From NCBI GenBank assembly GCA_028817775.1, contig JAPPOW010000230.1, forward strand, positions 1-57,221: DNA of 57,221 nucleotides, given 5' to 3'. A program made the translations under genes and the position numbers. The stretch's first letter is position 1, and each line of letters opens with the position of its first letter. Of this stretch, positions 4,525 through 56,216 are shown piece by piece. The DNA comes from Candidatus Melainabacteria bacterium (GTDB lineage Bacteria; Cyanobacteriota; Vampirovibrionia; LMEP-6097). The notes under the pieces are model-generated. The model saw only the letters and a program-made list of their open reading frames with translations, did not search any database and was not told where the DNA came from.

Positions 4525-4551
4525 TTATAATCAAATTAAGTAAGTCAATTA

Positions 4552-6808: not shown

Positions 6809-6841
6809 GGGGATCCTGACGCCTTACAGGCTCAGGATGAC
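6809..6841 (-). repeat. Family-A hairpin element (A4), short form
   Basis: Reverse read: GTCATCCTGAGCCTGTAAGGCGTCAGGATCCCC. Confidence 0.8.
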
Positions 6842-21360: not shown

Positions 21361-21380
21361 GACGGATTATTATAGCAATT

Positions 21381-21477
21381 TTAGCCACCCATGCCTTAAC
21401 CTTTACCATTTTTCAGGATAATTGCATAGTTTGGAATTATCTCAAAAAGTGGTAAAGGTTAAGGCATGGGTGGCTAA
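21381..21477. repeat. 97-bp palindromic element (28-bp perfect outer stem plus inner hairpin), 20 bp upstream of nadA
   Basis: TTAGCCACCCATGCCTTAACCTTTACCA (21381-21408) is the exact reverse complement of 21450-21477. The loop holds an inner hairpin (GATAATT...AATTATC). Single copy in this window. Confidence 0.8.
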
Positions 21478-21549
21478 ACGTTAAGTAAATATATAATCGA
21501 GGCCTGGCAAGAGGCTCTTTGCTAGAATTATCTCCCTCGAGGTCAAATT

Positions 21550-21732: not shown

Positions 21733-21841
21733 CTCTAAAATAACCCAATAGCTTTGTTCTGTGAGTCCTCATTGGCTTCAGCCAACTTCGGACACGCCCT
21801 TTGGGCTTCACATGCCTCGCTCTTGGGCATTTTAGAACTAT
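21728..21841 (-). repeat. Family-B structured repeat (B2, reverse orientation) directly after rpmF
   Basis: Reverse complement reads ...CAAGAGCGAGGCATGTGAAGCCCAAAGGGCGTGTCCGAAGTTGGCTGAAGCCAATGAGGACTCACAGAACAAAGCTATTGGG. Copy-specific outer stem AATAGCTCTAAAAT / ATTTTAGAACTATT (1 mismatch). Confidence 0.8.
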
Positions 21842-21860: not shown

Positions 21861-22778
21861 GTGCTCCGCTATATCTCTCTAAAATTAATATCAATTTGTT
21901 TGACCTTGTTTCTCTTGGTCTCTGCTAGTTTTTTTATGCTGCGCACTTTGCCTGGTAGCCCCTTTGAAGAAGGTAAGCGACTCTCACCAGAAATAATTCT
22001 CAAACTAGAAAAAAAATATGGGCTCGATAAGCCATTATTAGAGCAGTACCAATCCTATATTACTGGCTTAGTTAGGCGTGGCGATCTTGGTCCTAGCCTC
22101 AAGTATCCCAACCGTGATGTCGGTGATATTCTAGCTGACGCAATTCCAGTTTCATTAGGTTTGGGTTTGATTGCTTTGATACTGGCTCTGGTTTTGGGAA
22201 TGACTTTGGGCATCACTGCAGCACTCAAGCCAGATCACTGGCTCTCCAATTTTGCTTATTTGTTTTCAAGTCTGGGGATGTCGATTCCTGGATTTGTCTT
22301 TGCAGCAATTTTGATTAGTATCTTTGCACTCAAACTTAAATTACTGCCAGTTGCTTTACTTGAAGGACCTGAGTATTTCATTTTGCCTGCTTGCACCCTT
22401 GCTATTGCGCCAAGCTCTTATATCGCACGAATCACTCGCTCCTCAATGCTTGAAACTCTTGGGCGCGAGCATATCAAAACCGCTCTAGCCAAGGGGCTTA
22501 GTTACTACGATATTGTTTTGAAACATGGTTTGTGGAATGCATTGCTGCCGATAATTACAGTGCTTGGTCCAATTGCTGCAATTTTGGTTACCGGTTCATT
22601 TGTAGTTGAGTATATATTTGCCCTGCCTGGCATGGGTAAGTATTTTGTCACAGCATTTACTAACCGGGATTATTTTTTAGTTTCTGGGGTGATAATAGTA
22701 TTTGCTGTGATCTTACTGCTGATCAATACTTTGGTAGATTTAGTTATTAAAATTATTGATCCGAAATCGTCATCCTGA
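21861..22778 (+). CDS. ABC transporter permease, oligopeptide/dipeptide (OppB/DppB) type
   Basis: N-terminus MLRYISLKL...LPGSPFE, six TM segments and an EAA-like loop (SSMLETLGREHIKTALAKGLS). GTG start. The stop codon TGA lies inside a family-A repeat. Confidence 0.85.
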   Translation: MLRYISLKLISICLTLFLLVSASFFMLRTLPGSPFEEGKRLSPEIILKLEKKYGLDKPLLEQYQSYITGLVRRGDLGPSLKYPNRDVGDILADAIPVSLGLGLIALILALVLGMTLGITAALKPDHWLSNFAYLFSSLGMSIPGFVFAAILISIFALKLKLLPVALLEGPEYFILPACTLAIAPSSYIARITRSSMLETLGREHIKTALAKGLSYYDIVLKHGLWNALLPIITVLGPIAAILVTGSFVVEYIFALPGMGKYFVTAFTNRDYFLVSGVIIVFAVILLLINTLVDLVIKIIDPKSSS

Positions 22779-22820
22779 TCCTGGCGCGTTCGCTCAGGAC
22801 AGGCTTCCTCTGGATGACAG
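22769..22820 (+). repeat. Family-A-related hairpin (A5), extended/degenerate
   Basis: CGTCATCCTGA-TCCTGGCGCGTTCGC-TCAGGAC, then ...TCTGGATGAC pairs back to GTCATCC(T/A)GA. Confidence 0.6.
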
Positions 22821-22824: not shown

Positions 22825-23355
22825 TTACCTTCTACGAAGAAAACTTGAAGAACCGAGTGAGCCACCACGACGGTTACCTGTTGCACTATTAGAACCTAGA
22901 CCACTATTACGTCTGCTGGCACCAAAGAAGCTTCTTGAGCCAAGTGCACCATTGCGTCCACCTCTTCTGGCACTAGTTGAACCTAAACTGCCATTGCGTC
23001 CGCCTCTTCTTGCGCTACTTGAACCCAAGCCAGCATTGCGTCTTGAAAGTCCAGAGGAGCCAAGACTATTACGGCTATCATTACGATGAGTTAAGTTGGT
23101 GAGACTGTTACGAGTGTCGTTGCGATGAGTCAGGGTGGTGAGACTATTGCGTGTATCGTTGCGGTGTGTGAGTGTAGTTAAACTGTTACGAGTATCATTT
23201 TTAGATCTGATTCTACTGAGATTATTGCGCAATGCGCCTGCTCTATTGGAGAGACTTGATCTGCGAGAGCCAGAAGCGTAGCTATTACGGCTGCGTCCAC
23301 GACTACTAGAGCCGATGCCTTCATTATTGCTTCCACGTATTCCTCTTGCGACCAT
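22825..23355 (-). CDS. Arg/Ser/Gly/Asn-rich repetitive (RGG-like) hypothetical protein
   Basis: 176-aa ORF with NDTRNSLTTLTHR x3 and GSLGSTSARRGGRNG x2. No clear SD. The mirror plus-strand ORF is also open, so coding status is uncertain. Confidence 0.4.
   Translation of the reverse strand: MVARGIRGSNNEGIGSSSRGRSRNSYASGSRRSSLSNRAGALRNNLSRIRSKNDTRNSLTTLTHRNDTRNSLTTLTHRNDTRNSLTNLTHRNDSRNSLGSSGLSRRNAGLGSSSARRGGRNGSLGSTSARRGGRNGALGSRSFFGASRRNSGLGSNSATGNRRGGSLGSSSFLRRR
22949..23195. repeat. Two adjacent imperfect tandem-repeat arrays (42 bp x2-3 at 22949-23050; 39 bp x3 at 23079-23195) inside the RGG-like ORF
   Basis: Read directly. Units CCATTGCGTCC(A/G)CCTCTTCT... and CGTTGCG(A/G)TG(A/T)GT...GAGACT(A/G)TT(G/A)CG(T/A)GT(A/G)T. 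Confidence 0.75.
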
Positions 23356-23401: not shown

Positions 23402-23520
23402 AGATTTATTACGAAAGACACAAGAGCAAGGCTTGCGAGCCCCGAAGGGGTTTAGTCGAAGTTTATTTACATAAATGAGACCTCGCGTAACGCAGCTATT
23501 GGGTTTTTCGTGATGAATCT
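23402..23520 (+). repeat. Family-B structured repeat (B3)
   Basis: ...CAAGAGCAAGGCTTGCGAGCCCCGAAGGGGTTTAGTCGAAGTTTATTTACATAAATGAGACCTCGCGTAACGCAGCTATTGGG... with imperfect outer stem AGATTTATTACGAAAGA / TTTTTCGTGATGAATCT. Confidence 0.8.
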
Positions 23521-23537
23521 TGTTATATAATTAGCTT

Positions 23538-26872: not shown

Positions 26873-27000
26873 ACCTTTCTGTAGGGCACAAGAACGAGGC
26901 ATGCGAGCTAAGAAAACAGCAGGTTTTCTTAGTTTACCCGAAGTTTATTTCCATAAATGAGGGCGAGCATAACAAAGTTATTGGGCTCTACAGAAAGGTT
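26873..27000 (+). repeat. Family-B structured repeat (B4) filling the rpmH-rnpA intergenic space
   Basis: AACCTTTCTGTAGGGC...CAAGAACGAGGCATGCGAGCTAAGAAAACAGCAGGTTTTCTTAGTTTACCCGAAGTTTATTTCCATAAATGAGGGCGAGCATAACAAAGTTATTGGG...GCTCTACAGAAAGGTT. Confidence 0.8.
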
Positions 27001-27133
27001 ATAGGCTGATTTTTTTGCGTCCGCGTGCACGTCTGCGTGCAAGAACTTTACGGCCGCCAGGGCTGGCCATTCTGGCACGAAAACCACTGGTTCTTTTGCG
27101 TTTTCTTTGCGATCCACGTAAAGTCATTTTCAT
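26999..27133 (-). CDS. rpmH: 50S ribosomal protein L34
   Basis: [44 protein letters not shown]: canonical L34. Start at ATG 27133, not the ORF-track 27181. Confidence 0.93.
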
Positions 27134-28597: not shown

Positions 28598-29725
28598 ATG
28601 AAAAAAGACGAGAAGCTCACTGAAATAATGTTCAAGTCGCTAGCCAAGGACCCCGGGCTTGCTAGCCGTGAGGAGTGGGACAAAGCTGGTGATTGGGCAG
28701 TGGAGATGCGCTTCTTTCCTCATGCGCTGAGCTGTTACCAGATGGCTGCTGAAATTAAGAAAGATGAACCAATTCTCGTCAAAATTAATGACACTGTCGA
28801 CAAGATTACTAATGTACTTGAGTTTGTACCAGAACGGCTTAAAGCTCCACTGGAAGAAATTCGTTTGAGTAATCCACTTGATCCAAGTAAGTGGTTAGCT
28901 ATTTCTAATTCATTACTTAAAGAAGCGACTGAAGCAATGAATAAGGGCAGTCAGCCAGCAGAGGATTTGATGGAAGCTTCTCAATTTGCACTCGCCTTTG
29001 GCGCCTACTGTGCAGTGCGCTCAGGTAATGATATTGAACCAATTAATGGCTTACTGAGAGATTTGATTTTACCGGTAGATTTAAATTCATGGCAGAGTCC
29101 TAAGCTTGATCTTAAGTCAATTGATAAGGATCAAATTAGAGTAGTAGCACTTGGTGACAATGTGACTCTGGGTCTTAATAGTGACTGGGGTATTAATTTC
29201 CAGGAGACTTATCACTATCTTTGGTCACAAGCCAGCGGCAAGCAGGTTTCTTTAGCCAACAATGCCATCTCTGGAGCTGGTTTGCTTGACTTGGCTCTCT
29301 ATCTTGGTAGAGACGCGATTTATTTCAAGCCTGATATCGCTTTGATTAATTTTGGTATCAATGATGTTTGGTTGGGTCCTGATATTGTTCATGCTTATGA
29401 GGTTTTGCTTGAGCTTTGCGTCAAACTACTAGAGCGCAACGGTATTAAGCCAGTGATCATTACCCCAATCCCGCATATCGCCTCAGCTTGTCCTGAAGAG
29501 CAAAGACCAAATGATATTGATGTAGTTGATCTCGATACCCGTAATTTTGCTGATGCTTGCATCAGGGTCGCAGCCCGTACTGGTACAGTATTAGCCAATG
29601 CCTATAATAAATTCCCGCAGGATGAGACTCAGCGTAAAGAATATCTCGAGAATGGTTTCAATCAACCGAATCTTGCTGGGCAGCAATTAATCAAAGCAGC
29701 TCTCGATGAGGTCACTATAGCTTGA
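28598..29725 (+). CDS. Two-domain protein: helical N-terminal domain plus SGNH/GDSL-fold domain lacking the catalytic triad
   Basis: Block I reads ALGDNVT (Ser to Asn). Block II NNAISGAG and block III FGINDVW are intact. Block V reads ENGFNQPNLAGQQLI where DGxHPNxxGhxxiA is expected (Asp and His both Asn). The ATG directly abuts the ktrB-like stop (TAA-ATG). Confidence 0.65.
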   Translation: MKKDEKLTEIMFKSLAKDPGLASREEWDKAGDWAVEMRFFPHALSCYQMAAEIKKDEPILVKINDTVDKITNVLEFVPERLKAPLEEIRLSNPLDPSKWLAISNSLLKEATEAMNKGSQPAEDLMEASQFALAFGAYCAVRSGNDIEPINGLLRDLILPVDLNSWQSPKLDLKSIDKDQIRVVALGDNVTLGLNSDWGINFQETYHYLWSQASGKQVSLANNAISGAGLLDLALYLGRDAIYFKPDIALINFGINDVWLGPDIVHAYEVLLELCVKLLERNGIKPVIITPIPHIASACPEEQRPNDIDVVDLDTRNFADACIRVAARTGTVLANAYNKFPQDETQRKEYLENGFNQPNLAGQQLIKAALDEVTIA

Positions 29726-31074
29726 AAACTAAAGTAATTGCAATGGCTCATGGACCTTACGCTATTGCTAAGGAAGATGGGGTGATATTTATTGAGAATG
29801 CTTGTCCTGGAGATGAGCTTGAGTTAGAAATCTATGATCAGCGAAAGGATTTTGCTTATGCCCATATTATTGAGTTGCTCGAAGCTAGTGAGCTGCGCGC
29901 GCCTGAGCCACCATGTAAGATTCATAAGATCTGCGGCTCTTGTCAGTGGCAACATATTCAATATGATGAACAATTAAAATTCAAGCAGCAAAATTTAACT
30001 GATTTGATTCCGGGCGTTGAGACTCCAGCAATTGTTGGCATGGATGAACCTTGGAATTTCCGTAACAAAATTACTTACCCAGTCGAAGTGGTTGGCAAAA
30101 CTGGACGGGTCAAAGCAGGATATTTCAAGCGTAATAGTAATGAACTAATTAATGTCAAACACTGTCCTATACAGTATTCTATCTTTGATGAGATTATGGA
30201 TGCGCTTAAAGAACAAATGTCTACTCGAGGCTATCCTGATAAACTAATTCGCCATATTATGCTGCGCTCTAATATTGATCAGAGTGAGATCTTGCTCTGT
30301 GTGGTGCTTAGAGAGTCAATGCTTGATAAAGAATTTCGCAATAAGCTTCGGGTTGATCTAAACAAGATTCAAGAAAAATTTCCACAGATTGTTACGACTA
30401 GTATTAATTACAATGATCTTTCTACCAATGTAATTCTTGGACAGAAGACTGAAGTGCATAATGGTCCAGGATATATCACCGAGACTTTTGGCGGTATCAA
30501 ATTAGAAATCTCGACTACTAGTTTTTTTCAGGTTAATACCAAGCAGTTTCTCAAAATTGTTGAGCAAATCAAGTCTGCCATCCTGAGGACCCTGAGCGAA
30601 GAGAAGGGGACGTCAGGATCCCATAAACTTTTGGATCTCTATTGTGGTATTGGTACTATCTCGCTGAGTCTAGCTAAGGCAATCCCTGAGCTTGATATCA
30701 CTGGTATTGAACTGGTTGAGTCAGCGGTTGAAAATGCAAAAAAGAATGCTGAAATTAACCAAATTTCCACTGCAAAGTTTATTCATGGCAAGGTAGAAGA
30801 CCTTGCTTCCCCAGAGCCCTCAGCTCAGAGCCCTCAGCCCTATGACATTGTCATAGTGAATCCGCCACGAAAAGGCTGTACTAATAAAGTACTTAATGAT
30901 TTGGGGCAATTAAAATTTAAGCAGTTAATTTATGTGAGCTGTAATCCTAGTACTCTAGCCCGTGATGCTAAGCATTTAGAGCAGTTTGGTTTTAAAATTC
31001 AATCCTTGCAGGGCTTTGATATGTTTCCGCATTCGTTTCACTTTGAAACACTTGCCGTTTTGACGCGTGAGTAG
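29722..31074 (+). CDS. rlmD: 23S rRNA (uracil-5-)-methyltransferase, RumA/RlmD type (TRAM + 4Fe-4S + SAM MTase)
   Basis: CKIHKICGSCQWQH Cys cluster, FFQVN, LDLYCGIGTISL, VNPPRKG, YVSCNPSTLARD, FDMFPHSFHFE. Contains an in-frame family-A repeat at 30577-30622. Confidence 0.85.
   Translation: MKTKVIAMAHGPYAIAKEDGVIFIENACPGDELELEIYDQRKDFAYAHIIELLEASELRAPEPPCKIHKICGSCQWQHIQYDEQLKFKQQNLTDLIPGVETPAIVGMDEPWNFRNKITYPVEVVGKTGRVKAGYFKRNSNELINVKHCPIQYSIFDEIMDALKEQMSTRGYPDKLIRHIMLRSNIDQSEILLCVVLRESMLDKEFRNKLRVDLNKIQEKFPQIVTTSINYNDLSTNVILGQKTEVHNGPGYITETFGGIKLEISTTSFFQVNTKQFLKIVEQIKSAILRTLSEEKGTSGSHKLLDLYCGIGTISLSLAKAIPELDITGIELVESAVENAKKNAEINQISTAKFIHGKVEDLASPEPSAQSPQPYDIVIVNPPRKGCTNKVLNDLGQLKFKQLIYVSCNPSTLARDAKHLEQFGFKIQSLQGFDMFPHSFHFETLAVLTRE
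30577..30622 (+). repeat. Family-A hairpin element (A6) translated in-frame inside the rlmD-like gene
   Basis: GCCATCCTGAGGACCCTGAGCGAAGAGAAGGGGACGTCAGGATCCC, encoding AILRTLSEEKGTSGS just upstream of the SAM-binding LDLYCGIG motif. Confidence 0.75.
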
Positions 31075-33335: not shown

Positions 33336-33467
33336 GCAAATTGGCTTACTTTATAAGGTTCAATAGCTTTGTTATTTGAGTCCTCATTGGCTACAGCCAA
33401 CTTCGGACCCGCCCATTCTGGGCTTCAAATGCCTCGCTCTTGAACCTTTTAAAGCAAGCCGAATTGC
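33336..33467 (-). repeat. Family-B structured repeat (B5, reverse orientation), 5 bp upstream of the oxidoreductase start
   Basis: Reverse complement contains CAAGAGCGAGGCATTTGAAGCCCAGAATGGGCGGGTCCGAAGTTGGCTGTAGCCAATGAGGACTCAAATAACAAAGCTATTG. About 26-bp imperfect outer stem. Confidence 0.8.
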
Positions 33468-42020: not shown

Positions 42021-43295
42021 ATGCAAACCAAAGAACTAGCAAAATATTTTGGTGAATATGGCGGGCAATTCGTGCCAGAGACCTTGATGCCAGCTTTGGC
42101 TGAGCTTGAGATTTGCTACCTTGAAGCAATTGAAGATCAAGACTTCAAGGACCAACTTAATTACTATTTGCAAAACTATGTTGGTAGACCATCACCGCTT
42201 TATTACGCTGAATCTTTGACTAAACACTATGGCGGTGGCAGGATCTATCTCAAACGTGAGGATCTTAATCACACTGGCGCCCACAAAATTAATAACGCTA
42301 TTGGACAAGCTCTATTAGCCAAACGACTTGGCAAAAAATTAATCGTGGCAGAGACAGGAGCCGGACAGCATGGAGTCGCTACAGCTACAGCTTGTGCCTT
42401 GCTTGATTTAGAGTGCAAAGTATTTATGGGAGCCGAGGACATCAAGCGTCAAGCACCAAATGTCTATCGTATGGAACTACTGGGAGCCCAAGTGGTGCCA
42501 GTAGAATCAGGTTCACGTACACTTAAGGATGCGACATCAGAAGCGATTCGTTACTGGGTGACTAATGTAGTTTCCACTCACTATATTATTGGCAGTACTG
42601 TCGGTCCTCATCCTTATCCAACTTTAGTTAGAGACTTTCAAAGAATTATTGGAGACGAGGTCAAGCAGCAATTCTGGGAAGCTTATAGTCTGAGCTCAGG
42701 GCTTCATATGCAAGGCTTGCGAGCCCAAAGGGCTTGTCCGAAGTTGGCTGTAGCCAATGAGGACTCGCATAACGCAGCAGATGGAGCTATGAGCCCAGAC
42801 TATATTATTGCTTGTGTTGGTGGTGGCTCAAACGCTATGGGAATTTTCTATCCCTACCTTGAAGAAGCCCGCAAGCAAGAAACTAAATTGATTGCAATTG
42901 AAGCGGCTGGTGAAGGACTTGATGGCAAGCACGCAGCTTCAATCTCTAAAGGTAAGCCAGGAGTCTTGCACGGCTCCAAGAGTTACTTGCTGCAAGATGA
43001 GTTTGGGCAAATTCAAGAAGCTCACAGTATCTCTGCTGGGCTTGATTACCCGGGTATTGGTCCTGAGCATAGCTTTCTTAATGATGAAGGTTTAGTTGAT
43101 TACCAATCAATTACAGATAAAGAAGCGCTTGCTGCATTTAAATTACTTTGCAGGCTTGAAGGAATTATTCCAGCGCTAGAAAGTTCACATGCACTTGCTT
43201 ACTTGGAGAAACTTAAAACTAATCCAGATCAAACTATTGTGCTAAATCTCTCTGGTCGTGGTGATAAAGATCTCCAGCAAATATCAAACTGCTAG
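42021..43295 (+). CDS. trpB: Tryptophan synthase beta chain carrying a ~34-codon in-frame family-B repeat insertion
   Basis: [65 protein letters not shown]. The segment between IIG and [11 protein letters not shown] is 47 aa, versus about 15 aa in E. coli TrpB as recalled from memory. Confidence 0.92.
42694..42794 (+). repeat. Family-B structured repeat (B6) embedded in-frame in trpB
   Basis: GCTCAGGGCTTCATATGC-AAGGCTTGCGAGCCCAAAGGGCTTGTCCGAAGTTGGCTGTAGCCAATGAGGACTCGCATAACGCAG-CAGATGGAGCTATGAGC, translated ...[34 protein letters not shown]. Confidence 0.8.
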
Positions 43296-44852: not shown

Positions 44853-46352
44853 TTATCCTAGGTTAATTAATGTCTGAAGGACGTCATCAGATCTCTGAAC
44901 TGTTGTTGCATTGAACTGAAGACCTCTTTGGAAGGCAATCAATTCAGCGAACTCATCAGCGATGTTAACGTTTGATGACTCAAGTGCACCAGAAACAATC
45001 TGAGTAGCATTGATTGATCTTGCGTTTCTGTTAAACGGACCATCAATTACAGATGTAGCCGCTAGACCAGAGTTAGCAGTTTGTTGGAATCTATTTGCAC
45101 CAATAGACTTAAGACCATCCGGGTTAATGAAGTTACTCATTAGTAATCTAGCAATCTTGAGTTCCTCTGATCCAGGACCAATGATTGAGATAGTACCATT
45201 GGAAGAGATTGTGAAACTATTAGTTTCTCTCTCTAATGCTGAATCTTGGTCATACAAGAAATTAGGAATCTTGATTGATGAATATAAATCAGAAACATCT
45301 GCAACTTTCATATGTTCAAAGTCATCATTACCAACAGTAATATTAGAGCCAACTTGGGTTGTTGCTGCTGCACCTGAGAAAACCATTGTGTCACTAGTCT
45401 GAGTAGTAGAATCGTACTCAATATTAGCGAATGCATCTTCAAGTGAGTCAACACCAGGTTCTAATCTGATTCTCATTTGCAACTTGTCATCTGAACCATT
45501 GGTCATTTCAAATGAAAGTACACCATCTAGAATTGAAGCATTAGTATCAATTGCTGCAGTGAACAAGTCATCTGAAGTACCACCATTGGCATCATCGAAA
45601 GTAAAGAGTAATTTGTTGTCGTCTCGTCTAGAGATTGTCAAATCACCTGGAGTACCAGTTGTCACACCAGTGTTCTCATCGATTAAACCACCACGGATAC
45701 TAAGTTCTTGAAGTACTCCAGCAGTAAATGCAGGGGTAGAACCAGTAACGTTGGTAACAGTTGGAGTAGGAAGAGCTAAGTTAGGTGCACTCAAACCATT
45801 GTTTGGATACATGGTTGGGCTACCAGCCGGACCAATTGTTTGGTCTGTGTGGAAAGTGATTGCACTATAACCACTGATAGATTTTACTTTCTCTGTTGCA
45901 TGGTCATAGAGAGTTGCTGCCATAACTTTGGCACCATCTGCTGTAACCAAGTTTCCATCAGCGTCTAGAAGGAAGTGACCATCACGAGTATACTCTGGGT
46001 TGAGGATCTCGTTGGTTCCATCTGGAGTTGATGCCGAGATTACAAAGAAACCGTTTCCTGAAATTGCAAGGTCAGTTACGTTTCCTGTTTGTTTTAGTGA
46101 ACCTTGTGAGAATACCGAGTTGATATCACTCAAAGTTAAACCTGTACCAATTTGGCCTGGGTTCTTACCACCTTTAATGATAGATGGCGCTGAAGCATTT
46201 GATAGTGTACTGCTAACTGCTTCTGAAAAGTGTACTCTGGAGCCTTTGAAGCCGGTCGTGTTGACGTTGGCGATATTGTTTGCAATGACTGAGATCGCAT
46301 TCTGTTGCGTACTCAGGGCCCCTGCTCCTGTAAATAACGATGGGATTGGCAT
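44853..46352 (-). CDS. flgE: Flagellar hook protein FlgE
   Basis: N-terminus SLFTGAGALSTQQNAISVIANNIANVNTTGFKGSRVHF and C-terminus GALESSNVNIADEFAELIAFQRGLQFNATTVQRSDDVLQTLINL match flagellar axial-protein termini, closest in style to Bacillus-type FlgE. 499 aa. AGGAG RBS. Confidence 0.85.
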   Translation of the reverse strand: MPIPSLFTGAGALSTQQNAISVIANNIANVNTTGFKGSRVHFSEAVSSTLSNASAPSIIKGGKNPGQIGTGLTLSDINSVFSQGSLKQTGNVTDLAISGNGFFVISASTPDGTNEILNPEYTRDGHFLLDADGNLVTADGAKVMAATLYDHATEKVKSISGYSAITFHTDQTIGPAGSPTMYPNNGLSAPNLALPTPTVTNVTGSTPAFTAGVLQELSIRGGLIDENTGVTTGTPGDLTISRRDDNKLLFTFDDANGGTSDDLFTAAIDTNASILDGVLSFEMTNGSDDKLQMRIRLEPGVDSLEDAFANIEYDSTTQTSDTMVFSGAAATTQVGSNITVGNDDFEHMKVADVSDLYSSIKIPNFLYDQDSALERETNSFTISSNGTISIIGPGSEELKIARLLMSNFINPDGLKSIGANRFQQTANSGLAATSVIDGPFNRNARSINATQIVSGALESSNVNIADEFAELIAFQRGLQFNATTVQRSDDVLQTLINLG

Positions 46353-46364
46353 TTATTTTCTCCT

Positions 46365-47138
46365 TTATCTACCCAATGCTAATGTGGCTTCCAGTAATTC
46401 ATTAGCTGTTTGAGTAACCCTAGATACCGACTGGAATGATCTTTGGTATGCGATCAAGTCAACCATGTTGGCACTTAGGTCTGCGTTCGACGCCTCTAAT
46501 GCTCCAGACACAACTTGGGTTGCAGCAGTACCTGAACCCAACTCTTCTGCCGAGGAGTATTGAGGTGTTCCTGAATTGAGTGTTTCTCGATATTGGCTGT
46601 TGCCAATTGGTTCAAGCGCTTGATCATTTGCAAAACTCGCGAGTTGCAATTGAGCCAAGACTTGGAATGAGTCATCTCCCGATTCAAGAATTCTTATTTC
46701 ACCAGCCTGGGTGACTTCCATTGATTCGGTGGTGACAGGTAGTAGGATCTTAGATCCGCCTGAAGACAGTACGTAGTTGCCGTTTGCATCTACTAGTGCT
46801 CTCTCACCATCGAAGCTGAAATGACCTGATCTTGTGTAGATCACGTCACCAGTGGTGCTTTGTAAAGTAAAGAAACCTTTGCCTGTTAGTGCAAGGTCGG
46901 TAATTTGATTTGATGTTTTCAAGCTACCTTGGTTAAAGTTTGGTCTGATTGCTGCCACTGCAGCACCAGCGTATTGAGGATACTGACCGCTGCCTCTGCC
47001 TACTACACTTGAGAACTGTACTTTTTTCTCTTTGTAAGCGGTGGTATTAGTGTTAGCGATATTGTGTGCAACTACATCAATGGCAGATTGCATGCCTTTC
47101 ATTGTTGATGCGGATGATTTTAGTGCGCTAATTGACAT
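46365..47138 (-). CDS. Flagellar basal-body rod / hook-basal-body protein (FlgF/FlgG family)
   Basis: N-terminus MQSAIDVVAHNIANTNTTAYKEKKVQF and C-terminus GALEASNADLSANMVDLIAYQRSFQSVSRVTQTANELL. 257 aa. AAGGAG RBS. Confidence 0.8.
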   Translation of the reverse strand: MSISALKSSASTMKGMQSAIDVVAHNIANTNTTAYKEKKVQFSSVVGRGSGQYPQYAGAAVAAIRPNFNQGSLKTSNQITDLALTGKGFFTLQSTTGDVIYTRSGHFSFDGERALVDANGNYVLSSGGSKILLPVTTESMEVTQAGEIRILESGDDSFQVLAQLQLASFANDQALEPIGNSQYRETLNSGTPQYSSAEELGSGTAATQVVSGALEASNADLSANMVDLIAYQRSFQSVSRVTQTANELLEATLALGR

Positions 47139-49855: not shown

Positions 49856-49892
49856 GGAAGATCCTGACGTCGCAAAGCTCCTCAGGATGACC
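49856..49892 (-). repeat. Family-A hairpin element (A7)
   Basis: Reverse read: GGTCATCCTGAGGAGCTTTGCGACGTCAGGATCTTCC. Confidence 0.85.
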
Positions 49893-49981
49893 ATCAAAAT
49901 AAGCAAGAATTATCTAGGTTTTTAGCTGAAAACTAGATTTAATTAAAGCTTTATATAATTCGTCAAGACAAGCAAGCTAGA

Positions 49982-50656
49982 ATGATGGCAATGGAAAAGC
50001 GCAGCGCGGCTCGTGAGTTAGCATTTCTTGCTTTGTTCCAACTCCCGCAGAAATCTGAAAACATAAATATCGACAAACTCTCAAAAATGGACCTTGACGC
50101 CATTTGTTTGTCAGCGATTCGCACCTTGGCTGATCACAGCAAGGACAATATCAAGTCTGCTGAAGCTTTCTTTATTAAAGCTGAGCGTGCCGTGATGGAA
50201 CACCAAGTTAATCACGAGGCTAATGAAGCACTAGATGAAGCGACTCGTTCAGTTGAACTACCGCAGACTGAAGATTTTATAGAACATTTGAATAATTGTT
50301 ACCAAGCAATTGCGCTGATGCGTGAGGGCTTGCAGCTGCCTGAAGTTTATTGGCACTACCATGATGAAGCTACCAAAGAATTTGCACTTGATTTGATTTT
50401 TAAATATGTCAACAATCGTGAGGAAGTTGCAAGCTTGATCAAAGATGTCTCTAAATCATGGAAGGCAGAGCGTATCCAGAAGACTGAGCGTAAATTAATT
50501 GAACTTGGTATTACTGAGCTTGTGGCTTCTGATTTAGCTCACTCAGTAGTGGTTTCCGAAACTATTAAACTAGCTAATAAATATTCAACTGAAGAAGGTA
50601 TCAAATTTATCAATGGTATCTTGGCTGATGTGATTAAGATTCTTCAGGATCACTAG
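49982..50656 (+). CDS. nusB: Transcription antitermination factor NusB (long form)
   Basis: N-terminus RSAARELAFLALFQL and C-terminus ERIQKTERKLIELGITEL...VVVSETIKLANKYSTEEGIKFINGILADV are NusB hallmarks. About 80 extra residues lie between them. Confidence 0.75.
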   Translation: MMAMEKRSAARELAFLALFQLPQKSENINIDKLSKMDLDAICLSAIRTLADHSKDNIKSAEAFFIKAERAVMEHQVNHEANEALDEATRSVELPQTEDFIEHLNNCYQAIALMREGLQLPEVYWHYHDEATKEFALDLIFKYVNNREEVASLIKDVSKSWKAERIQKTERKLIELGITELVASDLAHSVVVSETIKLANKYSTEEGIKFINGILADVIKILQDH

Positions 50657-51920
50657 TTGTTTCTGGTTCTGGTGGTGGAGGTTCTGGCTCTGCTTTACTG
50701 ACTTGAGCTTCAGTGTTCTGAGGAGAGTCTTCTGCAACTTGAGTTTCTTGATCTGAGTTTGCTGCTCCATCACTGCTTAGAGCCCTAGCTGCTTCAGCTA
50801 AAGCGTCCCCAGCTGCAACTAGTGATGGAGGTAATACAGCTTGAGCTATTTCTCTACCCGTCATATTTCTTTCTTCACCAGTTTTGGGGTCAGTTACAGT
50901 TGTTACTTCATCGACAACTTCTACTAATTCTTCCAAAGTTTCTTGTGCAGCTTCTACGGTATCTTCAAATTTAGTTTCAGCTGCTTCAATTTTTCGTTCT
51001 TCTTCCGTTTGGGCTTCAATTTCATCTACATGGTGTTCAAATGTTTCAACTTCGTGGGCTGTACCGTCACCTGATAGGTGATAAACAGTGTTACCATCTT
51101 CATCCATGCCATCTTCTACGTTAAAACCAGCTTTAATTGCTTTATCAATAATTGCAGTTAATTTTGCTGGATCATCAATACCTGTAAGAGTTATATCAAG
51201 ATGTTTAGAGTCGCCACTACCATGATGTCTATATTTTACGTGACCATCAGGAGTTCGTTTTAATGCATGCTCGATTTCTTGAAATAATGCTTCTCTTGGT
51301 GATAGACTTGGTTTGCTTGTGCCACCAGTAATAGGTCCCTTGGAGTAACCACCACCTGAGCTATTGTCATGGTTTGAATTATTACCATTCCACCAATTGT
51401 AGAAATTTTGTCCCCAACTATTGTTGTTCGCAGGAGGTAGGCTGCCACCTGCACCACCCCAAGCATCGTCAATGCCCTGATGGTTATAAGAATTGAAAGA
51501 TTCGTTGAGGCGTCCTTGTTGAAGTGCGTTGAGTTCACTTTGTGGATTAAGGGCACTTGCCATTGTACCTTCAAGTAGCGCACTATTTTCTGGTCGCATC
51601 AAATCAGCTCTACCATTTACTGGACTTGCATCTTTAAATACACCACTAAGACTCGAGCTTAGATTAGCATTGGTTTGAGAATCTGAATTACTGGTGCTAG
51701 TTGCAAAATTTTCTTGCTTGCCTTGGCTAGTGCCAATATCAACTTGTGAGAATGGGAAATTAGGATCAGCATCTGAGCTGTCGCTAGAACCAGCTTGCGC
51801 TTGCGGTCCACTGACTTGGCTAATAGCAGACTTGGTGGTTTTATTGCCACCACTAACTTGGTTTATGCGGCCCGAGCCTGCACCCTGAATGCCTTGCAAA
51901 ATTTTTGCTGAATTAGCCAT
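50634..51920 (-). CDS. Hypothetical protein: S/G/N/Q-rich N-half, small folded middle, highly acidic C-terminus
   Basis: 428-aa ORF with no signal peptide and low-complexity ends. Overlaps the convergent nusB end by 23 nt. Confidence 0.5.
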   Translation of the reverse strand: MANSAKILQGIQGAGSGRINQVSGGNKTTKSAISQVSGPQAQAGSSDSSDADPNFPFSQVDIGTSQGKQENFATSTSNSDSQTNANLSSSLSGVFKDASPVNGRADLMRPENSALLEGTMASALNPQSELNALQQGRLNESFNSYNHQGIDDAWGGAGGSLPPANNNSWGQNFYNWWNGNNSNHDNSSGGGYSKGPITGGTSKPSLSPREALFQEIEHALKRTPDGHVKYRHHGSGDSKHLDITLTGIDDPAKLTAIIDKAIKAGFNVEDGMDEDGNTVYHLSGDGTAHEVETFEHHVDEIEAQTEEERKIEAAETKFEDTVEAAQETLEELVEVVDEVTTVTDPKTGEERNMTGREIAQAVLPPSLVAAGDALAEAARALSSDGAANSDQETQVAEDSPQNTEAQVSKAEPEPPPPEPETTSDPEES

Positions 51921-51973
51921 TTTGGAATCTCTAATTCAATGTATATAAACTGGTTTAAGGTAGGGTTATGGAT

Positions 51974-52531
51974 CTAGATTTCTACACCGTCTAACTGAGC
52001 TTTGAAGATAAGTTGAAGCCTTTCTATTAAGAACTTGTCACCATGAGCACTTGCGCTGCCATCTGCTCTGAGCCAAACTAGGGCTTCATTGTTGTGAGCA
52101 GTGACAAACCTAAATAAAGTCCCGCCGGTTTGCCTTTCTTCTTGCATCAAAGTATCGCCATTGTCGTAGTACCACGTTGAAATTTTGTCCCCATTCAACG
52201 TGGTTTCGACTGTCTTTTCTAGCTTTTTCTCTGCATCAAGTAAGTACATTACTTCAGAACCATCGTACTTAAATTCATGCATTGCTGGAAGTCCCTTGGA
52301 ATCCTCTGATAGATGGAAGATTTTGCCGCCGTCCATAGTATGTTCAACTGCAACCTCCACTCCTTCTGTATCATGAGTAAAAATTATTTGATTGCCATCC
52401 TCAGTCCTTGAGAATGCAAGCTCCTGCCCCTCTCCATCAGTGATTTTGCTTATATTATTGATTTCTCTTGCAAATACAAACTTTGCCTCAATCTTCTCTT
52501 TGATAAGCACTCTTGTGTTGGTTTCTTTCAT
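51974..52531 (-). CDS. Hypothetical protein, paralog of 53519..54082
   Basis: 185 aa. Aligns end to end with the 187-aa product of 53519..54082 (shared DGEGQ.L.FS.T..GN.II.T.D.EG..VA.EH..DG.K.FH...DSKGLPAMHEFK.DG.E..YL.D..K.LEK.VE...NGDK..TW...). Confidence 0.6.
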   Translation of the reverse strand: MKETNTRVLIKEKIEAKFVFAREINNISKITDGEGQELAFSRTEDGNQIIFTHDTEGVEVAVEHTMDGGKIFHLSEDSKGLPAMHEFKYDGSEVMYLLDAEKKLEKTVETTLNGDKISTWYYDNGDTLMQEERQTGGTLFRFVTAHNNEALVWLRADGSASAHGDKFLIERLQLIFKAQLDGVEI

Positions 52532-52596
52532 AGTAACTATATAAAGTTTGGCTGGAGCGCCATTGATTGCAAATTACTTAATCGGTTCTTAACGTT

Positions 52597-52693
52597 GTCA
52601 TCCTGAGGAACGCCGTAGGCGTGACGTCAGGACCCCATTGTTACCAAGCTGATTGGGGAGATCCTGACGTCGCCTGCTGCTCCTCAGGATGAC
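52597..52693. repeat. Inverted dimer of family-A hairpin elements (A8 52597-52636 forward, A9 52655-52693 reverse)
   Basis: GTCATCCTGAGGAACGCCGTAGGCGTGACGTCAGGACCCC, an 18-nt spacer, then GGGGAGATCCTGACGTCGCCTGCTGCTCCTCAGGATGAC. Confidence 0.88.
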
Positions 52694-52705
52694 AGCCATG
52701 CTAAA

Positions 52706-53443
52706 ATGAAAACCCTCATGAGTGAAAAACACATCTATATTGATCTAGAAACCACTGGCTTGAACGCCAACCAGGACCGGATTTGCCAGATTGGGGTGAT
52801 ACTTGATGATGGCAGGGAAATTAGTAGTTTGGTCAATCCTGAGATGAATATTCCAAAGCAAGTTAGTGACTTGCATGGCATCACCAATGAAAGGGTTGTT
52901 GACGCACCAAAGTTTGTCGATTTGGCGGCTCAATTAGTTGAGGAGCTTGAAGCAGCACAAGTATTTGTGGCTTACAACTATGCCTTTGATTTTCAATTCT
53001 TACAAAACGAATTGTTTAGAACAGTGCAGTATGAATTGCGTGAGGATAGTTTCGTATTTCTCGATCCTTATAAGATTTTCAAGACCATGTTTCCGCATAA
53101 TTTGAGCAATGCTTATAAGTTCTATACTGGTAAAGAATTGGATGGTGCTCATGATGCAATCAATGATATCCGCGCAACCAAAGAAATTCTGGCTGCACAG
53201 CAAAATCAATACGCTGAACTATTTGCGCGCGGGCTTAAAACTGTCGAGCAGAAAACTATCGGTGATACTTCTATCCTAGGCAAGTGGTTTAGAACCGAGA
53301 ATTCTGATGTTTGTTTTCGTCAGGGTAAACACCGGGGTGAGACAGTGGCCAAGGTCCACCGAGACTACCTTAAGTGGATATACTCATTAGAAGATATCAG
53401 CATGTCTGAGCGTAGATTTATCTCCAAATTCATTAACGCCTAG
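52706..53443 (+). CDS. DEDDh 3'-5' exonuclease (DnaQ/ExoX-like) with an ExoX-type C-terminal domain
   Basis: Exo I YIDLETTGL, Exo II VAYNYAFDFQFL, Exo III HDAINDIRATKEIL. The C-terminal FRQGKHRGETVAKVHRDYLKWIY resembles the small domain found after ExoX-like nucleases. Confidence 0.8.
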   Translation: MKTLMSEKHIYIDLETTGLNANQDRICQIGVILDDGREISSLVNPEMNIPKQVSDLHGITNERVVDAPKFVDLAAQLVEELEAAQVFVAYNYAFDFQFLQNELFRTVQYELREDSFVFLDPYKIFKTMFPHNLSNAYKFYTGKELDGAHDAINDIRATKEILAAQQNQYAELFARGLKTVEQKTIGDTSILGKWFRTENSDVCFRQGKHRGETVAKVHRDYLKWIYSLEDISMSERRFISKFINA

Positions 53444-53518
53444 GGGAAACCCCTGGCAAAATTAAGGCCGATATTTGTCAAATTACTGAGCTTTTGGTCC
53501 TTATATTAAAGGACGGAC

Positions 53519-54082
53519 TTGAATTACGATGAGGTAATTTATTTAATGGCGCAAGCAGATACTATTGAATCGAGATTTATTTTTAAGCAGAAGACGGCTT
53601 CTGCACTCAATTTTATTTCTGACGGTGAAGGGCAGACCTTAGGTTTCTCCAAAACTGACGAGGGTAACAATATCATTTATACCAAAGATCTTGAAGGTAT
53701 TGATGTGGCGATTGAGCACTATCCTGATGGCACCAAAGTTTTTCATATGGAGAAGGATAGCAAGGGTTTGCCAGCGATGCATGAATTCAAACCAGATGGT
53801 ACCGAGTATATTTATTTATTTGACTCTAAAAAACGTCTTGAAAAAATGGTTGAGATGAAAACCAATGGTGATAAGGTTACAACTTGGTTCTCAGTTCGAG
53901 GTGAAAGTATTAGACAAGAGCAAAGGCAACAAGGTGGTATCCTGTTTTCAATGGAATCCAAGGGTAATAAGGCTACGGTTTGGTTGCGCATTGATGGTTC
54001 GATAGAAAGCAGTGGCTATCCGCAATTGATTGCTCATCTTAAAATGGTCTTTTCGAAGTTTTTAGATGGATTGGAACTTTAA
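53519..54082 (+). CDS. Hypothetical protein, paralog of 51974..52531
   Basis: 187 aa. See the paralog entry. TTG start. Confidence 0.6.
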   Translation: MNYDEVIYLMAQADTIESRFIFKQKTASALNFISDGEGQTLGFSKTDEGNNIIYTKDLEGIDVAIEHYPDGTKVFHMEKDSKGLPAMHEFKPDGTEYIYLFDSKKRLEKMVEMKTNGDKVTTWFSVRGESIRQEQRQQGGILFSMESKGNKATVWLRIDGSIESSGYPQLIAHLKMVFSKFLDGLEL

Positions 54083-54089
54083 TTTTAGA

Positions 54090-54218
54090 TAGCATATGGT
54101 CGTTTCACTCCCTGCGTATGGCACTTCGTGCCTGCAAATTCTGCGCTGCAAATAGCAGGCGAAGCCATACGCAGGAGCTTTAGCTCCATATGCAGGGAGT
54201 GAAACGACCATATGCTAT
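54090..54218. repeat. 129-bp composite palindrome (27-bp perfect outer stem plus nested inner stems) between convergent genes
   Basis: ATAGCATATGGTCGTTTCACTCCCTGC (54090-54116) is the exact reverse complement of 54192-54218. Inner pairs GTATGGC/GCCATAC and TGCCTGC/GCAGGC. The bioF stop codon lies in the right arm. Confidence 0.85.
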
Positions 54219-55348
54219 TTACGAAGTAACCCCGCAACCCTCTCAATATCCCCAGCTTCATGAATAGAATTAATACAAATCCTTAAACGAGGATTAGGCA
54301 CTGTTGGTGGTCTAATTGCCACAACTAGGTAACCCGCTTCTTCTAACTCTTTGGCTTTAGCTTGAGCAGCTTCAGTGCTTGGCATATGAATTGCAAATAT
54401 CGGAGTGCCTTCGTTTGAGTAGTTGATCAATGCATTGGATTGCCACGTAGAGCTACGCTCTCCTCGCAATGACGTTTCAAACAACTCAATATTTTTTTGT
54501 AATTGATCACGCAATTCTTTACCTGCTGAAATTTCTTGCAAATGTTTAAGTGCAATTTGAGCTTGCAATGGAGGGTTTGCTGTTGAATAAATAAATGTTC
54601 GTGATTTGTTCTTGAGAAATTCAATTAATTCCTTGGAGCCAGCTATATAACCGCCTTCGAGCCCACCAGCTTTGGAGAGAGTACCCATTTGCACCACTAT
54701 ATTGTCCTTGGTGATCTTGCCAGCTTCAACTAATTCTTCAACCAAGCCAGCCCCATGGGAGCCAAGTACTCCAGTGCCATGAGCTTCATCGATATAGATG
54801 GAGGCATTGTTGGCTTGAGCAATTTCATTAATTTCGGGAAGTTTAGCTTTGTCACCATCCATACTGAAGACTGATTCAGTAACGATGAGTGATTTCTTGC
54901 CTTTGCTGCGGTGTTCTTGAATTAATTCTGCTAGATGTTTTGTGTTGTTGTGCTTATAGAAATATTTTTTAGCGCCGCTGAGTCTGATGCCATCTAAGAT
55001 ACAAGCATGGACATATTCATCAGCAAAAACAATATCGCGTGAGTTAAGAATTACAGAAAGTGTGCCGAGGTTAGCCATATAGCCGCAGTTGAAAATTAAG
55101 GCTGCTTCAGCCCCCTTCCACTGAGCGATAAAGTTTTCTAATTCTATGTGTTCATTGAATGTGCCACTAGTGATGCGTGAAGCACTAGCTCCGCGACGTG
55201 AAGCTGTCAGTGATAAGTCTCTGCGAGCTAAGCCTAAGTAATCATTAGAGCTAAAACTAATTAGATTAGAATCATAAACTTGTGCTTGGCGGTATAGATT
55301 TTTCTCACGCGCCTTGTTTAACTCTTCACTAAAGAACTCATTAAACAT
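54215..55348 (-). CDS. bioF: 8-amino-7-oxononanoate synthase-like PLP-dependent acyltransferase (BioF/Kbl family)
   Basis: [47 protein letters not shown] (PLP lysine). Start ATG 55348 overlaps the ubiX stop (ATGTTTAA). The ORF-track extension to 55516 runs into ubiX. Confidence 0.8.
54437..54473 (-). repeat. Family-A hairpin element, TTGC/GCAA variant (A11), in-frame inside bioF
   Basis: Minus read GTC-ATTGC-GAGGAGAGCGTAGCTCTACGTG-GCAAT-CC, translated [12 protein letters not shown]. Confidence 0.75.
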
Positions 55349-56216
55349 TGGCGTAACTTGGTGACTGCCGAGCTTGATCCCAGCGGTTGAAGTTCTCGTT
55401 TTCAATTCCAAAAACATCAAGCGCTTTGCCGCAAACAAATTTGACCATATCATCAATGCTTTGTGGTTTTTTGTAGAAGCCTGGACTTGCTGGTAGGACG
55501 ATTGCTCCCATCTCACTAAGCTTAAGCATATTAGTCAGGTGAATTGAACTAAGCGGGGTTTCACGTGCCATCAAAACTAGCTTACGACGCTCTTTGAGAC
55601 AAACATCAGCCGCTCTTGCAATCAAGTTATTAGAAGTGCCTGCTGCAATATTAGCGATACTGCCCATGCTACAAGGTGCAATGATCATACCTTGACTTTT
55701 GTAAGAACCTGAAGCGATTGAAGCCGTGATATCATCTGCTGCCCATAAAGTTAGCTCATGGCTGGTAGCTGATGCTTGATGGCTACTTTGGCTATAGCTT
55801 GGACTAGTTGTAGTTGGAGTAGCTTCGTTGAGGTCGTATGACAAACCTTGCTTGTATTTATTTTTTAATTCACGCTTACGTTTGAGTTCTAATTTTTTTT
55901 CTTCTATTTTTGAGGAGATACTTGTTTGTCTTGGACTAGGGTTTGGACTTGGAGTCCCAAAACTGGATTGCTTCGTCACTAGCGTTCCTCGCAATGACGA
56001 CCCGGTGCCAACATAATTTAAGATTTGTGACTTGCGCTGCTCCAGTTCGCCGTAGAGTTCTAGTCCGAGTTCGTGTTTAGCTACTTTGGTGGCGTTCTCT
56101 GAGAGTACTAGGTCTATCTTTTGCCCTTGTTGGAGCAAAAACTTGAGCAAGGCAAATCCATAAGGAGCTCCGCTGGCTCCGGTGATGGCTAAGGTGATGG
56201 GTTTACTTTGAGTCAT
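55341..56216 (-). CDS. ubiX: Flavin prenyltransferase UbiX with a ~85-aa low-complexity insertion
   Basis: [14 protein letters not shown] at the N-terminus. From [33 protein letters not shown]...[20 protein letters not shown]...[13 protein letters not shown] onward it is colinear with E. coli UbiX as recalled from memory. Residues ~70-153 have no counterpart. Confidence 0.88.
55965..55998 (-). repeat. Family-A hairpin element, TTGC/GCAA variant (A12), in-frame at the start of the UbiX insertion
   Basis: Minus read GTC-ATTGC-GAGGAACGCTAGTGACGAA-GCAAT-CC, translated [11 protein letters not shown]. Same reading frame as the bioF copy. Confidence 0.75.

Follow-up and report, generated by a model that had tools for sequence, protein, structure and literature searches.

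What kind of element is a hairpin repeat of a few tens of nucleotides that recurs within a single bacterial contig, how does it spread and which enzyme is likely to recognize it? These questions are raised by a contig of 57,221 nt (41.2% G+C; GenBank proteins MDD9899206-MDD9899260) from a metagenome-assembled genome of Candidatus Melainabacteria, hereafter the window, which was analysed over its entire length and harbours a repeat designated Family A both between and inside its genes. Family A is a genuine feature of the window, with 13 copies, and its end features place it in the class of CGTC-tagged repetitive extragenic palindromes (REPs). It probably represents a Melainabacteria lineage-specific expansion of a pan-bacterial class of small DNA hairpins, comprising the CGTC-tagged REPs and the Ssn-related motifs (SRMs), that is recognized by the GIY-YIG nuclease Ssn.

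A preliminary description of the window had reported a dispersed hairpin repeat with compensatory stem changes and inverted dimers resembling REPs and bacterial interspersed mosaic elements (BIMEs), and this was borne out: direct reading of the sequence located the element at all 12 of the positions listed. A 13th copy was found at 1378-1456(-), with the sequence CGTCATTGCGAGGA-[52 nt]-GACGAAGCAATCCAG; its match to a covariance model is weak (E = 0.14) and its identity rests on reading of the sequence. The model, built from 11 window copies with the outer stem as the sole structure and used with the search filters off, re-finds those copies, as expected by construction. A strict scan for GTC[AG]T-XXX-GA...rc(XXX)-AT, where rc denotes the reverse complement, gave nine matches in the window, compared with a mean of 0.58 and a maximum of 3 in 200 dinucleotide-preserving shuffles, which rules out a chance origin. 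No Rfam 15 family matched Family A in the window at the gathering score, a tRNA at 14979-15051 being the sole match above threshold.

The element displays an unpaired (C/T)GTC tag followed by an outer stem of 5 or 7 bp and, in the long form, a conserved internal loop (5' strand GAGGA, 3' strand GACG) that leads to a variable mini-hairpin. Two subfamilies can be distinguished. A1, with the 7 bp stem, has the form TGTC-ATCCTGA-(GGA)-hairpin-(GAC)G-TCAGGAT-C(Y)C and accounts for eight copies and a degenerate one. Six of the eight are long: 4461-4495(-), with the mini-hairpin AC-GAA-GT and a score of 48.8 bits; 6138-6178(-), between the convergent stop codons of an open reading frame (ORF) at 4921-6129(+) and hisB at 6184-6771(-); 30577-30622(+), in an RlmD-like gene; 49856-49892(-), upstream of a nusB-like gene; 52597-52636(+), with the inner hairpin ACGCC-GTA-GGCGT; and 52655-52693(-), which ends 12 nt ahead of the start codon of a DEDD 3'-5' exonuclease. 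The two short copies are 4414-4447(+), which has the inner hairpin GCTGC-GTA-GCAGC and is devoid of GGA/GAC, and 6809-6841(-), with the inner hairpin GCCT-GTA-AGGC, between hisB and an ORF at 6847-8169(-). The A1 copies are closely alike, scoring 44-49 bits each with the covariance model. The degenerate copy at 22769-22820, which cannot be assigned to a strand (model E of about 1 on both), ends in GTCATCC...GGATGAC, lies between a convergent ABC permease gene and an ORF at 22825-23355(-), and is probably a collapsed dimer. A2, with the 5 bp stem, has the form CGTC-ATTGC-GAGGA-hairpin-GACGNN-GCAAT-CCAG and comprises four copies: 1378-1456(-), which reads CGTC-ATTGC-GAGGA-[52-nt insert]-GACGAA-GCAAT-CCAG; 3506-3539(-), with the sequence CGTCGTTGCGAGGAGCGCATGCGACGCGGCAATCC, identified by sequence, covariance model and translation; 54437-54473(-), inside an AONS/KBL-like aminotransferase gene; and 55965-55998(-), inside ubiX.

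The ends of the element are its most constant part. The GTC of the tag is kept in 12 of the 13 copies (GCC at 30577), a C directly follows the stem in all 13, and the stem ends read AT...AT in all 13, the first pair being A.C in two A1 copies. The tag is CGTC in A2 and mostly TGTC in A1, with one GGTC and one TGCC. A2 copies end in a CCAG or CCAA tail and A1 copies in C(C/T)C. Between the subfamilies the stem switches from ATCCT/AGGAT to ATTGC/GCAAT through three compensated pairs, as the preliminary description had stated. Other parts of that account need qualification: the inner mini-hairpin, said to stay paired in nearly every copy, is well paired (at least 4 bp) in about half of them, the rest having two pairs, as in AC-GAA-GT or GC-TTT-GC, or none; the GAGG and ACG segments, said to be constant, are so in the long-form copies and are missing from the short-form copies 4414 and 6809. 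The inner loop is GTA or GAA in five of 12 window copies.

Two tail-to-tail dimers had been noted and are indeed present, with the tags facing outwards and the tails inwards: 4414/4461, whose halves are separated by 13 nt, and 52597/52655, where the separation is 18 nt. As single-stranded DNA, the second of these (52593-52697) is predicted to fold with -36.1 kcal/mol (z = -9.2); the folds of single copies have z values from -5.4 to about -1, with -10.5 kcal/mol and z = -5.1 for 4414-4447, and RNA folds equal DNA folds in stability. The CGTC tag and the conserved internal GACG are exactly complementary in all A2 copies and at loci L001-L120, and the predicted folding of copies 3506 and 55965 pairs the tag with GACG in place of the outer stem. 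Such a fold could represent an alternative state in which the determinant of cleavage is concealed. The GC skew is positive on the + strand throughout the contig, and the tag strand lies on the C-rich - strand in seven of eight single copies (eight of nine with the degenerate copy); the elements may be depleted from the strand exposed as lagging-strand template, in a sample that is small and confounded with gene orientation.

The ATTGC form had been taken as a local variant group, a view that does not hold, as it is the commonest form across bacteria. A scan of one genome per species with the pattern GTCATYSYGAGGAN{6,30}ACGNNRSRATC, in which the YSY and RSR triplets are free to disagree, matched at least 120 loci. 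Among the matches listed, to which the counts in this paragraph refer, A2 is nearly letter-identical in roughly 18 bacterial phyla and in unrelated gene contexts, the loci including Alpha-, Gamma- and Deltaproteobacteria, Chloroflexota, Bacteroidota, Bacillota, Patescibacteria, Zixibacteria, Nitrospirota, Planctomycetota, Armatimonadota, Ignavibacteriota, Fusobacteriota, Verrucomicrobiota, Gemmatimonadota and others. The near-identity extends over 32 nt (CGTCATTGCGAGGAGCGAAGCGACGAAGCAATCCAG) in roughly 18 phyla, and the commonest sequence, GTCATTGCGAGGAGCGAAGCGACGAAGCAATC, is unchanged in unrelated taxa. The free triplets are Watson-Crick complementary in 129 of 136 cases, where chance would give one in eight; TGC/GCA predominates (114), followed by CGC/GCG (6), TCT/AGA (4), TCC/GGA (3) and CCT/AGG (2). 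Of 132 copies, 70 have C and 51 have T at position -1, the bases after ...ATC are C or T and then A or C, and conservation ends at most 2 nt outside the element.

Many of these cross-phylum copies are followed, about 20 nt downstream, by an inverted and usually short-form partner. At least four contiguous pairs can be formed by 37% of 91 distinct inner segments, compared with 8.6% of shuffles, the commonest segments being GCGAAGC, GCGCAGC and GCGTAGC. These three are DNA mini-hairpins of the d(GCGNAGC) type with a GNA triloop.

The covariation of the stem is genuine. In a test that presupposes no pairing, in which elements were anchored on the 5' half and GAC[GC], 29 of 37 distinct elements carried the exact complement rc(X)+AT, against a chance expectation of about 0.4%. 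The statistical check of covariation, performed on an alignment of the elements beside metagenomic ssn genes that are matched by the window's covariance model, gave a score of 0.221 versus 0.093 in shuffles, none of 500 of which reached it, and slid controls scored at most 0.106. Pairs 3-5 of the stem change in a compensated manner throughout (U-A/C-G 31/11, C-G/G-C 38/4 and U-A/C-G 38/4), leaving no unpaired cell.

Individual copies are gained or lost between relatives. Window positions 49894-55300 have a syntenic counterpart, at 75-85% nucleotide identity, in contigs of a related species (L215-L220, from Logan runs SRR299361xx). At the site of the second dimer, which spans 96 nt in the window (52594-52689), L215-L220 have 7 nt instead, the empty site reading GGCTGTCAC-GCAAGA-GTTAAG; the 49856 copy is not present at the same site in L215 and L217, and the orthologue of the AONS-like gene is devoid of the 33 nt (11 codons) at the 54437 copy. 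The related species is therefore copy-free at all three comparable sites, and no Family A copy was found in its 4.7 kb. The absence of A1 copies from a relative at about 80% identity points to recent activity. In a third relative (L214, about 84% identity) the dimer site holds a palindromic version collapsed to 42 nt, and the inserts are kept in close strains (at least 90% protein identity). Since contigs L121-L126, L213 and L221-L223 are 99.9-100% identical to the window, they are uninformative on polymorphism.

Five of the 13 copies (1378, 3506, 30577, 54437 and 55965) are translated in frame, all in sense orientation, and encode residues that are missing from solved homologues. The 1378 copy, in an ORF at 1266-2771(-), encodes RHCED...RRSNPD, and the 3506 copy provides the last 13 codons (GVVARSACDAAIQV*) of an MbnB/DUF692-like gene at 3498-4409(-) while overlapping the start of a DUF2063 gene. 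The 30577 copy encodes AILRTLSEEKGTSGS just ahead of the SAM-binding motif of the RlmD-like 23S rRNA methyltransferase (gene at 29722-31074(+)). Within the AONS/KBL-like aminotransferase gene at 54215-55516(-), the 54437 copy encodes 12 residues, the protein having nine extra residues there with respect to 8s1y, and in ubiX (55341-56216(-)) the 55965 copy encodes the first 12 residues of a 75-residue insert that is not present in solved UbiX structures. This insert (window 55776-55998, residues 73-146) begins with the A2 element and continues with low-complexity sequence rich in Ser, Pro and Lys. All four A2 copies are genic, and the A1 copies are mostly intergenic; we infer that A2 is the older form in this genome and A1 a recent burst.

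Several known systems resemble Family A. The CGTC-tagged REPs defined by Di Nocera, De Gregorio & Rocco (2013; PMC3733652) have an unpaired CGTC or TGTC tag (variant CCTC), a stem that starts with A-T, T-A, and a CCA tail; their stems measure 8-9 bp and their loops 4-5 nt, they occur mostly as inverted dimers, intragenic copies are known, and no RAYT or other transposase gene is flanked by them. Neisseria dRS3 and Rickettsia RPE-4 and RPE-6 belong to this class, which is listed for five phyla, cyanobacterial lineages not among them, and whose families were proposed to be perhaps heading for extinction (PMC3733652). Family A shares the tag, the A-T/T-A start of the stem, a CCA-like tail, the dimers, in-frame genic copies and the lack of a linked transposase, and is likewise dispersed at high copy number (13 copies in 57 kb, with two dimers and five in-frame genic copies). 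It differs in not being a simple hairpin with an 8-9 bp stem and a 4-5 nt loop: its stem is of 5-7 bp, interrupted by the GAGGA/GACG internal loop, and carries a second hairpin, which is variable and measures from 7 to more than 50 nt. Peptides that characterize this class, such as SLRG...QS, were not found in the published table of intragenic REPs (PMC3733652).

The second system is that of the Neisseria NTS (CGTCATTCCCGCGMAVGCGGGAATCYRG), which is bound by SsnA, a 94-residue single-domain GIY-YIG nuclease (Chenal et al., 2025; PMC11893778). SsnA binds the NTS as single-stranded DNA only, neither as RNA nor as duplex DNA, and its cut lies a few nucleotides upstream. Binding depends most on the C that directly follows the palindrome, and cutting on the GTC that precedes the palindrome (PMC11893778). 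In Neisseria the Ssn system lowers transformation by NTS-bearing DNA, and ssnA genes are typically bracketed by repeats, which were generalized as SRMs (PMC11893778); no later paper on Ssn or SRMs was found in the literature. Family A has the same ends, CGTCAT...ATCCAG, including the two critical positions, the GTC 5' and the C 3' of the palindrome, whose roles were defined in that work (PMC11893778). The hairpin-ssn-hairpin cassette, the nuclease family (49% identity) and the occurrence of hundreds of dispersed copies are further likenesses. The differences are that the stem of Family A is broken by an internal loop and its loop is replaced by a variable hairpin, that elements of this type are associated with an Ssn clade found in Cyanobacteriota, Chloroflexota and Bacillota, and that genic copies make up 2% of Neisseria NTS versus five of 13 copies in the window. 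Classical NTS-type hairpins (TGTCATTCCCGCGAAAGCGGGAATCCAG) lie within a few kilobases of ATTGC-GAGGA elements in the same genomes (L005, L007, L021, L066 and others); genomes can thus host several hairpin classes side by side, and it may be asked whether each genome has one Ssn or more.

REP/BIME and REPIN-RAYT systems (Nunvar, 2010; Bertels & Rainey, 2011; PMC3116915) have tagged hairpins, inverted doublets, non-autonomous dispersed copies and a flanked, single-copy partner gene in common with Family A. They differ in the tag, which is GTAG, and in the enzyme, which is an HUH Y1 protein and not a GIY-YIG one; moreover, REPs are species-specific, whereas A2 is nearly identical across phyla. 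Like Family A, Rickettsia palindromic elements are small palindromic repeats that lie in frame in housekeeping genes and leave the reading frame open, although RPE-1 is unrelated in sequence and RPE-4 and RPE-6 are simple CGTC hairpins. Such elements in protein-coding genes were reportedly described by Ogata and co-workers in 2000, RPE-1 measuring about 100-150 bp.

In other organisms the GAGGA/GACG architecture is tightly associated with ssn genes: the gene flanked by repeats of this type encodes a GIY-YIG protein of about 95 residues, of the cd10448 type as judged by PF01541, size and identity. In an Oscillospiraceae genome (L040), inverted GTCATTGCGAGGA...GGCAATCTCCCGGTAC copies enclose a GIY-YIG gene (PF01541, E = 1e-16), and an Ssn profile run on 120 pattern-picked loci found an ssn gene abutting the element there, in L049 (Planctomycetota) and in L116 (Patescibacteria), with three to four abutting genes in total. 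A crude GIY-YIG regular expression matched twice in the same 120 loci, and BLASTP clustering of the ORFs around the pattern-picked copies returned only repeat-readthrough ORFs or common superfamilies. The protein database holds at least 7,995 Ssn relatives, the named ones coming from many cyanobacteria; the closest plasmid homologue, from Planktothrix agardhii (66% identity), is flanked by GTCATTCTGA.../GTCATCCTGAATGTAGCGAAGCG... dimers, and a Neisseria gonorrhoeae record encodes an NTS-flanked 94-residue SsnA-locus protein with 48% identity. Arrays of GTCAT-xxx-GA...xxx-AT-C elements flank the ssn genes of Planktothrix, Anabaena, Scytonema and Kalymmatonema, and in the last three genera ssn adjoins arrays of up to 16 elements of the ATGCT/AGCAT and ATTCT/AGAAT types.

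Relatives of the Scytonema protein served to pick 80 metagenomic ssn loci, and elements were present at 77 of these, with 236 strict elements in 176 kb versus 1.5 in shuffles. They stand on both sides within 400 nt in 55 of the 80 loci, the nearest one at a median of 37 nt upstream and 45 nt downstream of the gene; 44 are of the GAGGA form (for example TGTCATTCTGAGGAGCGAAGCGACGAAGAATC), and the covariance model made from the window copies finds 43 elements beside metagenomic ssn genes at E < 0.01. The flanked proteins are assigned to the Ssn family on the basis of PF01541, their size (about 95 residues), 49% identity to the Neisseria SsnA-locus protein (E = 3e-29) and their catalytic residues, Y6, Y17 and E64 being invariant.

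By analogy with these loci, the likely partner of Family A is the GIY-YIG single-stranded DNA (ssDNA) nuclease Ssn, and not a RAYT. In the proposed mechanism, the hairpin would form once the tag-bearing strand becomes single-stranded, for example during replication, repair or DNA uptake, and would then be bound by an Ssn-family GIY-YIG nuclease of about 95 residues encoded elsewhere in a hairpin-ssn-hairpin cassette. Judging from the Neisseria enzyme, the C after the stem would serve for binding and the GTC for cleavage, the cut falling a few nucleotides upstream. The copies and inverted dimers would be non-autonomous relatives of the cassette ends, and would spread through intergenic DNA and, in frame, into genes. 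Ssn would thus be present in this organism and act on these copies, and either Ssn or another enzyme would drive their spread.

A number of observations weigh against this assignment. The published SRM expression, HGTCWYN(0-2)YYVSBRHN(0-5)WNVSBRGN(0-2)RNCYNB, matches none of the 13 copies and gives no match on either strand of the window; it does match the NTS and has nine matches in a 3.3-kb Neisseria sequence, and in the 176 kb around the 80 ssn loci it has one, probably spurious. Since it matches no copy, Family A is a structural variant beyond the published definitions. Several copies fold weakly as lone hairpins (z between -1 and -2). No ssn gene was found on the 57-kb contig with a profile that recovered all positive controls (best E = 0.87), and a protein-database query with the Ssn flanked by the most A1-like elements returned only Chloroflexi-type proteins, the top matches being from Anaerolineae. 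No organism but this one showed the exact A1 form (GAGGA...GACGTCAGGAT), which in no case stood beside ssn and had no match in viral contigs. Finally, what has been shown for Ssn is cutting, not transposition, and the role ascribed to the enzyme of the cyanobacterial/Chloroflexi clade is transferred from that of Neisseria. In view of the contig devoid of ssn, the uniqueness of A1 and the failed Ssn query, the link between the 13 copies and Ssn is drawn from the homology of their architecture.

A bolder and rather doubtful extension of the proposal is that the hairpin-ssn-hairpin cassette is itself an autonomous single-strand DNA transposon driven by its GIY-YIG nuclease, the two-storey hairpins being its ends and their offspring, similar to miniature inverted-repeat transposable elements, with movement between phyla, possibly borne by phages. 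If true, this would explain both the near-identity over 32 nt in roughly 18 phyla and the in-frame settling in essential genes. We know of no transposase class based on a GIY-YIG nuclease that has yet been demonstrated in bacteria.

Alternatively, the copies might act mainly as transcribed RNA hairpins, as stabilizers of mRNA 3' ends, partial terminators or translational modulators. Several copies do lie a few nucleotides past stop codons or between cistrons (hvfA/hvfB, hisB), one dimer ends just ahead of a start codon, the five in-gene copies are all in sense orientation, RNA folds are as stable as DNA folds, and the 2013 survey argued that many REPs are transcribed (PMC3733652). This reading is nevertheless improbable. 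There is no T-run after the hairpins and no Rfam family at the gathering score, and the strongest conservation falls on the unpaired tag and the C after the stem, the recognition positions of an ssDNA nuclease that does not bind RNA. The element is kept in about 18 phyla amid unrelated genes, and copies come and go between close relatives, so that no locus depends on them. Intrinsic terminators were considered and rejected, the hairpins being followed by CC(C/A)... and not by a T-run. The balance leans towards a hairpin that acts as single-stranded DNA more than as RNA, because the characterized Ssn binds ssDNA and neither RNA nor double-stranded DNA (PMC11893778); an added effect at the RNA level, at particular loci, would be compatible with this. 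GNA-triloop mini-hairpins of the d(GCGAAGC) type are, moreover, common in the inner hairpin.

The preliminary description had instead proposed a REP/REPIN family mobilized by a RAYT, an IS200/IS605-type Y1 HUH enzyme, encoded elsewhere in the genome. Short tagged hairpins, inverted doublets that fold into long REPIN-like hairpins and copies in intergenic DNA close to gene ends are what such a system would display, and RAYT subclasses do exist in Cyanobacteria (PMC6006769). The partner suggested was not upheld, however, and a RAYT is now very unlikely: the tag is (C/T)GTC and not GT[AG]G, CGTC-tagged REPs are RAYT-free, with no RAYT or transposase gene bracketed by them (Di Nocera et al.; PMC3733652), and the gene that is flanked encodes the GIY-YIG protein Ssn, at 77 of 80 loci and in three phyla among the pattern-picked loci. 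In addition, no Y1 transposase occurs among about 55 window ORFs, and REPs that co-evolve with RAYTs are species-specific, in contrast to the near-identity found here between phyla. The copies are not fragments of a larger insertion sequence, as had also been considered, since their flanks are unrelated beyond about 2 nt and a Pfam scan of the same ORFs returned no transposase. Inert relics of an extinct element, with no recognizing protein left in the genome, are scarcely to be expected either, even though there is no ssn gene on the contig, CGTC families may be nearing extinction (PMC3733652), all A2 copies are genic, one carries a 52-nt insert and another copy is degenerate, because the A1 copies are very alike (44-49 bits), the stems are still compensated and the three of three comparable sites that are empty in the relative at about 80% identity point to recent activity.

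If Family A is, as we favour, an expansion of the CGTC/SRM class recognized by Ssn, it bears on how that class is surveyed. Ssn nucleases date, as a described family, from 2025, and the expression used to catalogue their sites is fitted to the simple hairpin of the Neisseria type. A large and very conserved clade of Ssn proteins, known from cyanobacteria, Chloroflexi, Firmicutes and candidate phyla, apparently uses an interrupted hairpin instead; because the published expression misses this hairpin, SRM genome surveys undercount such sites. The GAGGA/GACG loop and the replaceable inner hairpin suggest hypotheses on recognition by this clade that are of interest for the use of these enzymes as programmable cutters of ssDNA. 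How CGTC repeats spread has been asked since 2013, and the filled and empty sites, together with the in-frame inserts (ubiX, rlmD and the AONS-like gene), provide material on this question. In annotation, recognizing the elements keeps spurious small ORFs from being called and accounts for odd inserts and C-terminal tails in real proteins.

Further observations concern the ssn loci and the remainder of the window. In Scytonema and Kalymmatonema (L130, 1517-3085; L131, 2356-3236), 13-16 alternating ATGCT- and ATTCT-type elements follow ssn with a period of about 58-108 nt, and most Ssn homologues in the protein database come from contigs under 2 kb, probably because assemblies break at element arrays. 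Ssn relatives are encoded by 32 predicted viral contigs (IMG/VR; L224-L226, L238, L253 and L254 among the loci); the complete hairpin-ssn-hairpin cassette occurs on several of them, with GAGGA-containing elements on L253 and L254. Viral contigs are a possible vehicle for spread between phyla, and some may be bacterial DNA.

A second intergenic repeat family, of about 55-90 nt, in both orientations and unrelated to Family A, has the core ...AAATGAGGNCNCGCRTAACGCAGYTATYGGG.../...CCTCATTGGCTNCAGCCAACTTCGGAC... and copies at 17140-17197, 21746-21834, 23450-23530, 26932-27012, 33361-33451 and 42722-42785. Inverted repeats are found at 21380-21478, upstream of rpmF (47 nt, with a 5-nt spacer), and at 54086-54221, past the end of the AONS-like gene (arms of 36 nt enclosing 64 nt), and a perfect 21-nt palindrome lies inside a tetrapyrrole methylase ORF (118-160). 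A cluster of the hvfA-hvfB-hvfC type for a metallophore of the ribosomally synthesized and post-translationally modified peptide (RiPP) class spans 2779-4866(-): its precursor gene (4552-4866) has a 15-nt periodic Cys-rich repeat (NF050188, NF050137), and next come the MbnB/DUF692 gene (3498-4409) and then the DUF2063 gene (2779-3522). The 4414/4461 dimer separates the hvfA precursor from the hvfB modifying enzyme, and the MbnB/DUF692 and DUF2063 genes meet in an A2 copy. Flagellar rod/hook genes of the FlgE/F/G family, at 44853-47138(-), are consistent with a non-photosynthetic, motile Melainabacteria lineage.

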